Positions 7,572 to 39,962 of a DNA stretch of 64,000 nucleotides are shown here, in pieces. Numbering within the stretch: position 1 is the stretch's first letter; the number at the start of each line of letters is the position of its first letter. The notes below the pieces were generated by a model. The model was not told where the DNA came from. It saw only the letters and a list, made by a program, of their open reading frames with translations, and made no database searches. Source of the DNA: Candidatus Magasanikiibacteriota bacterium (GTDB lineage: Bacteria > Patescibacteriota > Patescibacteriia > Magasanikbacterales > GWA2-37-8); assembly GCA_041665405.1 (NCBI GenBank), contig JBAYIZ010000002.1, positions 7,300-71,299 on the forward strand, read 5' to 3'. The position numbers were made by a program, and so were the translations under genes.

Positions 7572-8945
7572 ATGTTTCCAAAACAGGTATTTAAAGCCTA
7601 TGATATCCGCGGTTTGGTAGAGGGAGAACTCAACGATGATATAGCCTATCGGATTGGACGTTCTTACGGTGTATTTTTGCGTGATTTTTATAAAGATTGG
7701 AATGGTAAAAGTGTAGTGGTAGGCAGAGATATGCGCGCCACCAGCCCGCAATTTGCCAAAGAAGTCACTAGGGGGCTCAATGACGAAGGGTTGAATGTTG
7801 TTGACATAGGTTTGGCTAGCACTCCATCGTTTAATTTTGCCTGTACATTTTACCCTGAGCATGTGGCTGGGATAATGGTGACCGCTTCCCATAATCCAGC
7901 CGAATATAATGGTTTCAAAATGACTTTGGGAGATGGAACACCAGTAGGAGGCAAAAATGGTATGGATAAAATACGGGATGTAGCAGAGAAAATGGACAAC
8001 ACTGTCATTCCCGCGAAAGCGGGAATCCAAGCAGGCATCACAAAAAAGGATGTGGTATCGGATTATTTAAACAAAATACTTTCAATTGTAAAAGTTGAGG
8101 GAATAAAACCATTAAAAATAGTGATAGATGCAGGCAACGGTATGGCCGATGTGACTTTCCCTAGTTTATTAAAAAAATTGCCAGTGCAGGTAGAGTATTT
8201 ATTTTTGGAACCAGACGGTACTTTTCCAAACCATGAGGCCAATCCATTAAAAACTGAAACATTAAAAGATTTGCAAAAAAAAGTTTTGGAAACTGGAGCG
8301 GATTTTGGTTTTGCTTTGGATGGTGATGTCGATCGTTTTGGTTTGGTAGATGAAAAAGGGGAGGTGGTAGAGGCGTCTTTTGTCGGAGCATTGTGTGGTG
8401 TGGAAATTTTGAGTGAGCACCCAGGGGCACACATGCTCTATGATTTGCGATCAAGCAAAATTTTGAAAGAAACATGGGAGGCCAATGGTGCCACCACCGA
8501 TATGTGTCCGGTCGGGCATGCCAATATCAAGAGGATGATGAAAGAACAAAAAGCAGAGTTTGCTAGTGAACTATCTCTGCACATGTATTTTCATGAAATG
8601 AGCGATGTAGAAAGTACAGATCTAGCACTATTATATTTCTTACGATTGTTGTCGCGTACTGGCAAAAAGATGAGTGAATTGGTGTTGCCATTTAAAAAAT
8701 ATTTTCATGCTGGAGAAATCAATTTTGAAGTGAAGGATAAAGAAAAGGTCTTGAACAATTTACGTGTTCAATATGGTGATGCTAAAATTATTGAGTTGGA
8801 CGGGTTGTCTTTTGAGTATCCAACCTGGTGGTTTAATGTGAGAGCAAGTAACACGGAACCGGTATTGAGGTTGAATTTGGAGGCAAATACAAAAGAGGAA
8901 ATGGAAGAAAAATTAGCTGAGGTCAGGCAAATAATCGAAGGGTAA
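7572..8945 (+). CDS. Phosphomannomutase/phosphoglucomutase (alpha-D-phosphohexomutase family)
   Basis: N-terminal KAYDIRG motif, active-site TASHNPAEYNGFK, four-domain length (457 aa). Contains an in-frame copy of the 27-nt hairpin element (VIPAKAGIQ). Confidence 0.85.
   Translation: MFPKQVFKAYDIRGLVEGELNDDIAYRIGRSYGVFLRDFYKDWNGKSVVVGRDMRATSPQFAKEVTRGLNDEGLNVVDIGLASTPSFNFACTFYPEHVAGIMVTASHNPAEYNGFKMTLGDGTPVGGKNGMDKIRDVAEKMDNTVIPAKAGIQAGITKKDVVSDYLNKILSIVKVEGIKPLKIVIDAGNGMADVTFPSLLKKLPVQVEYLFLEPDGTFPNHEANPLKTETLKDLQKKVLETGADFGFALDGDVDRFGLVDEKGEVVEASFVGALCGVEILSEHPGAHMLYDLRSSKILKETWEANGATTDMCPVGHANIKRMMKEQKAEFASELSLHMYFHEMSDVESTDLALLYFLRLLSRTGKKMSELVLPFKKYFHAGEINFEVKDKEKVLNNLRVQYGDAKIIELDGLSFEYPTWWFNVRASNTEPVLRLNLEANTKEEMEEKLAEVRQIIEG
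8003..8029 (+). repeat. Copy A of 27-nt GNRA-hairpin repeat (tgtcattcccgcGAAAgcgggaatcca), in-frame inside the phosphohexomutase CDS
   Basis: 8-bp stem attcccgc/gcgggaat with GAAA loop. Same element at 12688, 28814 and 39931 with compensatory stem changes. Confidence 0.75.
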
Positions 8946-8960
8946 ATTTGTTAAATAAAC

Positions 8961-9066
8961 AAAATACCGCCAATAGTGACTTTTTAGCTTTCCTCACCCC
9001 GCGAGGGGCTCGGGGATGAACCTCGGTTCATAACCCGCTAAAAAGTAACTATTGGCGGTATTTTTT
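8961..9066. repeat. Copy 1 of ~105-nt palindromic element (A-run...T-run outer inverted repeat, conserved core with GCGA-loop hairpin and 'cataacccgct' motif); probable bidirectional terminator / structured RNA between convergent genes
   Basis: Outer stem aaaataccgccaatagt/actattggcggtatttt. Inner stems gactttttagc/gctaaaaagt and ccccGCGAgggg. Related copies at 22245-22356 and 60336-60412 (reverse). Confidence 0.65.
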
Positions 9067-9076
9067 GCTATAAAAC

Positions 9077-38275: not shown

Positions 38276-38291
38276 TTAATAATTTATAAAT

Positions 38292-39926
38292 ATGGCAAAA
38301 CAAATTTTATATAGTGACGATGCTCGCCACAAACTTTTAAATGGTGTAAATATTTTGGCCAATGCGGTCAAGGTGACTTTGGGGCCTCGCGGTCGCAACG
38401 TAGTTTTGGACAAAGGTTATGGCGCGCCTACAATTACTAAAGATGGTGTTACTGTCGCTAAAGAAATTGAAGTGGAAGATAAATTTGAAAACGCTGGCGT
38501 AGAATTGGTAAAAGAAGTAGCTAGTAAAACCAATGATGATGTTGGGGATGGTACTACTACCGCTACCGTTTTGGCTCAGGCGATTGTTCGTGAAGGTTTG
38601 AAAAATGTCACTGCTGGTGCCAATCCAGTCGCTCTAAAGCGTGGAATTGATAAAGCTGTTGAGATGATTGTAAAAGAATTAAAAGAAAATATTTCCAAGC
38701 CAGTAGATGAAGATGAAATTGCCAATGTAGCTGCCATTTCTGCCAACGACAAAGAGATTGGTGCCAAGATTGCAGAGGCCATGAAAGCGGTTGGTAAAGA
38801 TGGTGTAATCACTGTCGAAGAATCACAATCTTTTGGCATGGAAATCGAAACCGTACAAGGTATGCGTTTTGATAAGGGATATGTTTCTCATTATATGGTG
38901 ACCAATTCGGATCGCATGGAAGCCGAATATATGGATCCATCTATTTTAATTACTGATAAAAAAATCAGTTCTATCCATGACATTTTACCATTGTTAGAAA
39001 AAATTGCTCAAAGTGGTAAAAAAGATTTGGTGATTATTGCCGATGATATCGATGGTGAAGCATTGGCTACTTTGGTGGTAAATAAATTGCGTGGCACATT
39101 TAATGTCTTGGCAGTGAAAGCTCCTGGTTTTGGTGATCGTCGCAAGGAAATGTTGCAAGACATCGCCGTGTTAACTGGTGCTAAAGTGATTACCGAGGAA
39201 CTTGGTATGAAATTGGATGCAACTACTTTAGAAGATTTGGGAAGTGCACACAAAGTAACTGCCAACAAAGAAAATACTACAATCGTCAAAGGCAAAGGCG
39301 ATGAAAAAACTGTTCAAGACCGTGTTGCTCAAATTCGCAAATTGATTGAATTGTCCGACAGTGATTTTGATAAAGAAAAATTACAAGAACGCTTGGCCAA
39401 ATTGGCAGGTGGTGTGGCTATCATCCGTGTAGGTGCGGCCACAGAAACTGAAATGAAAGAAGTAAAACATCGTATTGAAGACGCAGTTGGTGCCACCAAG
39501 GCCGCTGTGGAAGAAGGTGTAGTACCTGGCGGTGGTGTGGCTTTGATTCGTGCGGCCAAAGTGTTGGAAGGAATGAAAATGACTCATGAAGAAGAAGTCG
39601 CGGTGAAAATTTTGCGTCGTGCGCTAGAAGAGCCACTTCGTCAAATTGCAGAAAATGCTGGTATAGATGGTGCGGTAGTAGTGGAAGAGGTAAAAAAATT
39701 ATCGGGTAATATGGGATACAATGTTGCGACTGAACAATATGAAGATCTCGTAAAGTCCGGTATTATTGATCCCACCAAAGTCACTCGTAGTGCATTGCAA
39801 AATGCCGCTTCAATCGCCGGAATGTTTTTGACTACTGAAGCGATAGTAACTGATATCCCAAAGAAAGATGAACCTGCTATGCCGCCCGCCTATGGCGGGG
39901 CAGGCGGTATGGGTGGAATGTATTAA
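38292..39926 (+). CDS. groEL: Chaperonin GroEL
   Basis: Canonical GroEL sequence throughout ([29 protein letters not shown]-terminal GGM repeats). Confidence 0.95.
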
Positions 39927-39930
39927 AAAC

Positions 39931-39962
39931 TTGTCATTCCCACGAAAGTGGGAATCCAAAAC
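39931..39962 (+). repeat. Copy D of 27-nt GNRA-hairpin repeat (ttgtcattcccacGAAAgtgggaatccaaaac), 5 nt after groEL stop
   Basis: Stem attcccac/gtgggaat, GAAA loop. Confidence 0.75.

Follow-up and report, generated by a model that had tools for sequence, protein, structure and literature searches.

The locus examined here raises a question: how does a short, hairpin-forming DNA element come to lie, in reading frame, inside two housekeeping genes? The locus is a stretch of 64,000 nucleotides (hereafter the window) of contig JBAYIZ010000002.1, from assembly GCA_041665405.1 of a Candidatus Magasanikiibacteriota bacterium. An initial annotation, made from the sequence alone, had described a 27-nt hairpin element at four places in the window, one of them within a phosphohexomutase gene and one within leuS, and had read the paired changes in its stem as a sign that a GNRA-loop hairpin is selected at the RNA level. 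The element can be assigned by sequence to the CGTC-tagged superfamily of repetitive extragenic palindromic (REP) elements and, within it, to family CGTC-1, also known as dRS3 and RPE-6, which forms the core of the NTS/SRM motif. The copies are probably those of a CGTC-1/dRS3/NTS repeat that has spread as a small selfish element, is tolerated within genes and is constrained at the level of its hairpin.

Anatomy of the element and its copies in the window

Exact matches to ATTCCCNNGAAANNGGGAAT are found four times in the window, all on the + strand (8007-8026, 12692-12711, 28818-28837 and 39936-39955), at the four loci first reported, and none was obtained across 100 dinucleotide-preserving shuffles. 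The core palindrome of all four is ATTCCC-N2-GAAA-N2-GGGAAT; with the conserved flanks included, the full unit reads T-GTC-ATTCCCNN-GAAA-NNGGGAAT-C(C/T)A and is an oriented sequence of 27-28 nt. A generic scan for GTC-tagged hairpins of 8-9 bp followed by C returned exactly these four + strand units and one minus-strand unit (scan coordinates 28849-28873). The units, their host genes and the features around unit 4 are as follows.

8003..8030, + strand: unit 1, TGTC, ATTCCCGC-GAAA-GCGGGAAT, CCA; inside the PGM/PMM gene, in frame
12688..12715, + strand: unit 2, TGTC-ATTCCCGT-GAAA-ATGGGAAT-CTA, with one G.T pair; intergenic, ~110 nt upstream of the target gene of a diversity-generating retroelement (DGR)
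28814..28841, + strand: unit 3, TGTC-ATTCCCGT-GAAA-ACGGGAAT-CCA; inside leuS, in frame; forms the left half of an inverted dimer
28849..28874, minus strand: unit 3', TGTC-ATCCCCGA-CTTGA-TTGGGGAT-CCA; 8-bp stem with one G.T pair and a 5-nt loop, CGTC-2-like
39932..39959, + strand: unit 4, TGTC-ATTCCCAC-GAAA-GTGGGAAT-CCA; in the groEL 3' untranslated region (UTR), between stop codon and terminator
7572..8945, + strand: phosphomannomutase/phosphoglucomutase (PGM; 457 aa), host of unit 1
26247..29324, + strand: leucyl-tRNA synthetase (LeuS; 1025 aa), host of units 3 and 3'
38292..39926, + strand: groEL, the gene upstream of unit 4; stop codon at 39924-39926
39958-39985, + strand: terminator-like hairpin with a T run (to 39995), following unit 4

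The unpaired TGTC tag is present in all four + strand units and in the minus-strand partner, and each of the four has the AT-start 8-bp stem ATTCCCNN/NNGGGAAT closed by a 4-nt GAAA loop. The tail after the palindrome is CCA in units 1, 3 and 4 and in the partner, and CTA in unit 2. The four window units agree at every non-variable position, and the variable stem pairs among them are GC/GC, GT/AT (with one G.T), GT/AC and AC/GT, complementary in every copy as had been pointed out. When the units were folded computationally as single-stranded DNA (ssDNA), every one formed a hairpin, with z from -2.5 to -4.2; unit 1 reached -9.2 kcal/mol (z -4.2). The hairpin centre is GCGAAAGC in unit 1 and GTGAAAAT, GTGAAAAC and ACGAAAGT in units 2-4. 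Five of the six reading frames of the unit are free of stop codons.

Unit 4 begins 5 nt past the groEL stop codon, as originally noted. The unit was also considered as the groEL terminator and rejected as such, since a separate stem with a T run comes after it. Unit 2 was likewise rejected as a DGR target-recognition hairpin: it sits ~110 nt before the start codon of the target gene, not after the variable repeat (VR). The sole extra site at three mismatches (42610-42629, minus strand) was regarded as a chance match because the flanks, tag and tail, are missing.

Two minus-strand open reading frames (ORFs), 7554..8030 with a TTG start and 28533..28841 with a GTG start, begin exactly at unit ends. 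They are by-products of the units, in agreement with the earlier suggestion that the element creates spurious ORFs. Masking of the units is advisable in annotation, since they seed minus-strand ORFs with peptides of the FRGND and AFAGMT types.

Family identity

Tagged REPs have been divided into two superfamilies, GTAG and CGTC (Di Nocera, De Gregorio & Rocco, 2013; PMC3733652). In family CGTC-1, CGTC, TGTC or CCTC is accepted as the tag, the stem has 8 bp with complementary A-T in its first and second positions, and the loop has 4 nt; the family corresponds to dRS3 of Neisseria and RPE-6 of Rickettsia conorii and occurs mainly as dimers (PMC3733652). Intragenic, translated units and dimers of 20-30 aa have been catalogued in that work, and no dedicated transposase was found (PMC3733652). 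About half of the dRS3 copies form an oriented 28-nt sequence, the NTS, CGTCATTCCCGCGMAVGCGGGAATCYRG (Chenal et al., 2025; PMC11893778), and in various phyla NTS-like motifs, termed SRM, lie on either side of ssnA, a gene for a 94-aa protein with a single GIY-YIG domain. SsnA recognises the hairpin solely in the form of top-strand ssDNA: duplex, RNA and the reverse strand are not bound, and the cut falls a few nt upstream of the hairpin. Cleavage depends on the three bases before the palindrome (GTC) and binding on the C that follows it; the identity of the loop is dispensable. In Neisseria, the Ssn system modulates natural transformation (PMC11893778).

The window units share with CGTC-1 the tag, in its TGTC variant, the 8-bp stem starting with A-T/T-A, the 4-nt loop, the CCA tail, and the occurrence of inverted dimers and in-frame units; they differ in that the tag is TGTC in every copy, in a genome of 36% G+C. 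With dRS3/NTS they share the identical palindrome ATTCCC-N8-GGGAAT, the GTC and the downstream C in 4/4 units, and a loop that falls within GMAV, whereas they start with T where NTS has C, and they end in CCAA, CCAC or CTAA, not CYRG. Neisseria NIME, 50-150-bp RS units bounded by dRS3, form arrays; the window holds only single units and one dimer.

A further likeness is to RPE-6 and RPE-4 of Rickettsia (equivalent to CGTC-1 and CGTC-4), which are palindromes translated in frame within housekeeping genes at tolerant sites. A Rickettsia endosymbiont (locus L077) carries the window-type unit as an inverted dimer. Classical elements of the RPE-1 type differ in their length of 100-150 bp, and the window host belongs to the candidate phyla radiation (CPR) instead of being an obligate intracellular alphaproteobacterium. 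Rickettsia palindromic elements (RPEs) were reportedly described by Ogata et al. in 2000-2002. NCBIfam RPE models gave no match at E<=1 to the window peptides or to the L077 dimer in six frames. The initial label "RPE-like" was nonetheless apt, CGTC-1 having been equated with RPE-6 of R. conorii (PMC3733652).

The GTAG REP/BIME-RAYT systems resemble the present one in their short tagged ssDNA hairpins, in a small dedicated enzyme gene flanked by them, in dimers and in dispersion; their tag is GTAG, and their enzyme is an HUH Y1 transposase, not a GIY-YIG nuclease. In addition, d(GCGNNAGC) is known as an extraordinarily stable DNA mini-hairpin (Hirao and colleagues; reviewed in PMC13037366). 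The centre of unit 1 is exactly GCGAAAGC, and those of units 2-4 differ; this is a biophysical motif, not a genetic element.

What is new is the presence of a CGTC-1-type element in a Magasanikbacteria (CPR) genome, the kind of element itself having already been described. The family is thereby extended to CPR/Patescibacteria, with a literature that now spans 25 years (dRS3 in 2000, RPE in 2000, CGTC REPs in 2013, NTS/Ssn in 2025).

In-frame copies in PGM and LeuS

In both host genes the GTC of the tag is a codon (8004-7572 = 432 in PGM and 28815-26247 = 2568 in leuS, both divisible by 3), so that the two intragenic copies are read in the same frame, as first described under the formula VIP(A/V)K(A/T)GI(Q/H). 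Unit 1 encodes VIPAKAGIQ, PGM residues 145-153, in the segment TVIPAKAGIQAG, and unit 3 encodes VIPVKTGIH from LeuS residue 857, in the segment VIPVKTGIHGVGSPIKSGMT.

Across 120 aligned PGM homologues, the insert falls in a short hypervariable segment. The element is missing from the nearest orthologue, P0002 (87% identical), and from most other homologues, and it is present at the same site in P0003 and P0005. In P0073 it is read in a different frame (SFPRKRESS) and followed by a second, inverted unit, and P0100 carries an unlike palindrome at the same site. In the AlphaFold model of the window PGM, residues 145-153 lie within the coil 141-155, the block with the lowest confidence score (predicted local distance difference test, pLDDT, 61; mean pLDDT 91.9); on this model, unit 1 sits in a disordered and tolerant loop. 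Between PGM orthologues, the nine element codons match at 8-9/9 third positions, against 0.52-0.55 elsewhere, and the encoded peptide differs (AKA vs VQT) despite this match. Either conservation acts at the nucleic-acid level, therefore, or the copies are recent or homogenised.

The leuS insertion is an inverted dimer, given the minus-strand partner unit at 28849; the second leuS hairpin noticed initially is real and is this inverted partner. The tags point outward, the tails face each other across a 7-nt spacer, and unit 3' reads SPIKSGMT on the + strand. The nearest LeuS orthologues are without the element. P0145 holds a visibly decayed copy of the window dimer, and P0192 an independent dimer (VIPAKAGIQ...DSRFRGND). 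The site aligns with a variable segment between helices, where the anticodon-binding domain of solved LeuRS structures begins. At least three further palindrome families whose peptides start with VI, and which are thus GTCAT-tagged, occupy the same LeuS loop in other Patescibacteria.

The proposal that these copies are 9-codon, lineage-specific insertions in surface loops was borne out for the lineage specificity and for the variable loops, and has to be amended for the length: the net gain is +4 codons in PGM (relative to P0002) and +13 in LeuS (relative to P0122). The nearest orthologues being free of the element, an ancestral conserved peptide is contradicted, and the expected placement in loops agrees with the low-confidence PGM coil and the variable LeuS segment.

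Coding palindromes at the PGM and LeuS loops were also seen in P0100, P0164, P0167, P0174, P0186 and P0201, for instance VIASEAKQS...PRNDK. Further inserts of this kind are VIARSEATQSPEGEEIAS...ARPRNDK and VIPSEARADEGSP..., and all start with VI (= GTCAT). This common start suggests that several REP families of the CGTC superfamily decorate Patescibacteria proteins. That this element and related GTCAT-tagged palindromes have colonised the same PGM and LeuS loops repeatedly is new as well; the searchable literature yielded no description of these findings.

LeuS varies in other ways in this group. Residues ~464-640 of the protein encoded at 26247-29324 form an inserted alpha/beta-hydrolase or Ser_hydrolase-like domain, placed between the editing domain and the remaining catalytic core. 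Magasanikbacteria LeuS occurs in forms of ~800 aa without an insert, of ~1000 aa with the hydrolase, and of 950-1300 aa with a NUDIX domain (PF00293), with or without the hydrolase.

Copies elsewhere in the lineage

The PGM and LeuS proteins of the window recur at 100% identity on a 104-kb contig of a Candidatus Magasanikbacteria MAG (ena:ERZ27249449:k141_1630104), where the window covers positions 7235-71234. Over ~72 kb of the source contig, six solitary units and one dimer partner are found, two of them + strand units just past the window end. In two relatives the density is 2-5 units per 21 kb, with units on either strand and, in L125, a dimer placed between pheS and pheT; no unit was found in the ~6-kb locus of a third relative, L122. 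At the intergenic site between LemA and M50, L124 and L125 carry a unit and the window does not; presence or absence of units differs among close relatives at the PGM, LeuS and LemA-M50 sites. The same copies recur in independent assemblies (L125/L126 and L127/L128) and are therefore not assembly artefacts.

A variant unit, CGTC-ATCCCCGT-GAAA-ACGGGGAT-CTG, lies at L127 19322-19410, on the source contig ~6.6 kb past the window. It is followed by an inverted unit with a loop expanded by ~25 nt, AGATTCCCGT[ccccactttcgtgaggacaagcttt]CACGGGAATAAC, and the whole looks like a nested or rearranged dimer.

Distribution across phyla

The motif GTCATTCCCNNGAAANNGGGAATCC has 21 specified bases, for which ~0.3 chance matches would be expected in 596 Gb by our own arithmetic. 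It was found at no fewer than 120 loci of a species-representative genome collection, in more than 15 phylum-level groups, and in at least 120 viral contigs of IMG/VR. Together with the two additional units on the contig and the 2-5 units per 21 kb in two relatives, these matches show that the element is not restricted to the four loci of the window. The groups listed include Chloroflexota, Alpha-, Beta- and Gammaproteobacteria, Desulfobacterota, Bacteroidota/Ignavibacteria, Acidobacteriota, Planctomycetota, Nitrospirota, Omnitrophota, Vampirovibrionales, Armatimonadota, Latescibacterota, Zixibacteria, Binatia, Poribacteria and seven CPR lineages; a Rickettsia endosymbiont and cultured Povalibacter, Devosia, Sphingopyxis, Dyella and Lysobacter are also among the matches listed.

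A recurrent layout emerges from the flanks of 157 copies: a left unit, a spacer of 10-45 nt, and an inverted right unit ending in ...GGGAATGAC. In the 154 copies from the 120 listed loci, the variable stem pairs are GC/GC in 126, doubly compensated in 18 (15 GT/AC and 3 AC/GT) and singly changed in 10. T and A co-occur in the stem 15 times, against ~2 expected under independence, a comparison to be read with the shared descent of the copies in mind. Long stop-free stretches (12/154) were tried as a test of intragenic copies elsewhere and left unused, being unreliable in high-GC genomes.

Two side observations concern particular matches. At L077 5680-5900, from the Rickettsia endosymbiont of Polydrusus tereticollis, the inverted CGTC-1 dimer has a 65-nt AT-rich spacer, and further tagged hairpins, of a different type (GTCATACCGTGGCTTGACC...), lie around it. 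In IMG/VR, the position of the unit is often <=~50 nt from the end of a predicted viral contig (L133, L135, L136, L138, L142, L197 and L198), and some contigs carry 5-6 copies; by analogy with the Nf/MDA phages of Neisseria, such contig-end positions would be expected if prophages integrate at dRS3-type sites.

Association with Ssn-type nucleases

An Ssn homologue flanked by units is present in 5 of the 120 listed loci (L097, L092, L120, L050 and L091), and in several listed loci a small GIY-YIG ORF directly adjoins a unit. L120 is a CPR contig with Ssn beside units, and a close protein match to it is labelled Absconditabacterales. If an Ssn is present in the window genome as well, its ssDNA cut sites would lie inside essential genes, with a bearing on replication and on the handling of incoming DNA.

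In the Ssn homologue of L120 (6656-6940, minus strand), whose contig is labelled Candidatus Peribacteria, a conserved position is occupied by an in-frame TGA. The database proteins closest to this homologue are full length (94 aa), one of them labelled Absconditabacterales; this points to genetic code 25 (UGA = Gly) and perhaps a mislabelled taxon, not to a pseudogene. The Ssn family (cd10448; 94-97 aa; P0241-P0360) is unusually conserved, at 64-89% identity to the CPR query in matches labelled Francisella, Ignavibacteria, Omnitrophota, Bacteroidetes and Absconditabacterales. This parallels the near-invariant DNA hairpin across genomes of very different G+C.

Origin of the copies and alternative explanations

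The proposed mechanism starts from the unit itself, a (C/T)GTC tag, an 8-bp AT-start stem, a 4-nt loop and a CCA-type tail, which would fold into a hairpin wherever DNA is transiently single-stranded. By analogy with characterised systems, the top strand of this hairpin may be the recognition site of an Ssn-type GIY-YIG nuclease of ~94 aa that cuts a few nt upstream; in those systems ssn genes are typically flanked by units, in the manner of a minimal insertion sequence. Such a nuclease may maintain or mobilise the units, much as Chenal et al. suggest from the analogy with REP/RAYT, and this would be how an enzyme of that type acts on the copies in this genome and how they came to be inserted. 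In the Magasanikbacteria lineage, the element would have spread as a small non-autonomous selfish repeat, both singly and as inverted dimers. Copies within genes would survive only where their net length is a multiple of three, their frame is free of stops and their site is a tolerant surface loop, and the PGM and LeuS copies would appear "in frame" because only such copies survive. The paired stem changes would reflect constraint on the nucleic-acid hairpin, or homogenisation, not selection on the peptide.

Several observations weigh against this account. No Ssn was detected by tblastn or by a five-sequence profile hidden Markov model (best E ~0.2) in the window, a further 8 kb of the contig and ~60 kb of loci from four relatives (together ~130 kb from Magasanikbacteria, to which the source contig contributes ~72 kb), and none of the 120 matches listed in a protein search seeded with CPR Ssn was labelled Magasanikbacteria. 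The chemistry of CGTC REP insertion or mobilisation has never been demonstrated, and at the LemA-M50 site the flanks have diverged too far for a comparison of filled with empty sites to define a target-site duplication. Against the strict NTS CGTCATTCCCGCGMAVGCGGGAATCYRG, units 1-4 have 2, 5, 4 and 4 mismatches (threshold <=1), located at position 1 (T for C), at the compensated stem pairs and in the last one or two bases. Similarly, the SRM expression HGTCWYN(0-2)YYVSBRHN(0-5)WNVSBRGN(0-2)RNCYNB, hand-built from 29 genomes, is matched only by unit 3, by unit 1 if the last position is dropped, and not by units 2 and 4 or the partner. Finally, all six solitary copies on the contig, and the copies at all eight distinct lineage sites, are in sense orientation to the nearest gene; the minus-strand copies of L125 adjoin minus-strand genes and are thus also sense. 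In this small number of sites, part of whose orientation is explained by the coding-frame constraint, the pattern tracks transcription and not replication direction, and sense-only orientation would fit an RNA-level or transcription-linked role too.

The role in RNA favoured initially, in which transcripts would be selected for a GNRA-tetraloop hairpin that, for example, stabilises 3' UTRs, marks a processing site or binds a protein, with the intragenic copies as tolerated passengers, is quite improbable as the main explanation. It would account for the sense orientation of all window copies and all eight lineage sites, and the position of unit 4 in the groEL 3' UTR, before the terminator, suits it. 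Across phyla, however, 53 solitary copies are sense and 43 antisense by crude gene calls, which gives no clear sense bias, and 97 of ~199 copies among the matches listed lie in inverted pairs, so that both orientations are transcribed together. The loops, GAAA, GCAA or GGAA, and the pairing that unit 2 keeps through G.T (G.U) on the sense strand speak for it as well, and Di Nocera et al. argued from location and G.T pairs that transcription is common among tagged REPs and that these may function as RNA (PMC3733652). Yet SsnA, the one characterised partner of this hairpin, binds ssDNA, does not bind RNA and can dispense with the loop (PMC11893778), GCGNNAGC is hyperstable as a DNA hairpin itself (PMC13037366), and single-step stem variants have A.C on the top strand more often (6) than G.T (3), which indicates no top-strand wobble preference. 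Rfam at the gathering threshold and tRNA scans of the whole 64-kb window returned no match, rRNA included. The compensatory changes thus do not bear out selection on RNA, and an RNA-level side role of transcribed copies may exist. An Ssn-less lineage, in which the units are decaying fossils, are mobilised by another enzyme or were acquired horizontally, is unlikely as well, though less markedly so. The missing Ssn in the ~130 kb searched, the decayed dimer of P0145, the 19% of genomes with >200 SRM and no detectable Ssn (PMC11893778) and the proposal that CGTC families may be dying out (PMC3733652) point in this direction. A single ssn gene per ~1-Mb genome would, on the other hand, easily be missed in 72 kb, and the window units are identical at non-variable positions, with third positions in the PGM unit conserved far above the gene average, which speaks for activity in the recent past, gene conversion or a constraint that persists.

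A different use of the same sites, as attachment or insertion targets of a recombinase, is known for dRS3 and the Piv/IS110-type integrase of the filamentous Nf/MDA phages of Neisseria. This reading is compatible with spread as a selfish CGTC-1 repeat and does not exclude it; as the explanation of the window copies it is very unlikely. A specific phage recombinase reportedly targets dRS3 (PMC11893778), and many viral matches lie <50 nt from the contig end (L135, L197, L133, L138, L136 and L198), but no integrase, IS110-type gene or prophage lies beside any window copy, and multiplication and entry into coding sequence would be left unexplained. That the units are classical REP/BIME elements mobilised by a RAYT, an IS200/IS605-type tyrosine transposase, is barely credible: the short tagged palindrome, the inverted dimers and recognition as ssDNA are common to both, but the tag is (C/T)GTC rather than GTAG, CGTC units do not flank RAYT genes (PMC3733652), and the RAYT-like transposase that the initial annotation proposed to look for is absent from the Pfam-annotated regions around the units. 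It is also rather unlikely that GTCAT-tagged palindromes are, perhaps without any Ssn, pervasive and recurrent in-frame colonists of the same few surface loops of housekeeping proteins throughout Patescibacteria, a reading that draws on the presence across lineages of at least four palindrome families in one LeuS loop and at least two in one PGM loop. If it were true, insertion would have to be guided by sequence or structure, or some other activity would have to mobilise the palindromes; a transcription-strand-linked mechanism would also be possible, given the sense-only solitary copies in the lineage. Comparisons of filled and empty sites in the two housekeeping genes could help to explain how CGTC REPs insert.

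Additional features of the window

Unit 2 lies upstream of the target gene of a complete DGR (12822-15529), with the following components.

12822-13646, + strand: DGR target gene, 274 aa; VR at 13516-13640, at its 3' end
13982-14106: template repeat (TR), 79% identical to VR; 24/26 mismatches at TR adenines
14146-14478, minus strand: Avd-like gene
14522-15529, + strand: reverse transcriptase

The cassette is missing from the syntenic regions of the relatives L124 and L125. The deposited gene call for the target gene is on the minus strand (12801-13643) and is probably wrong. GC skew is strongly positive (0.14-0.27) over 16000-64000, where nearly all genes are on the + strand. Very large ORFs are also present, of 1502 aa (40234-44742), 2184 aa (45466-52020) and 2624 aa, the last running beyond the window end.

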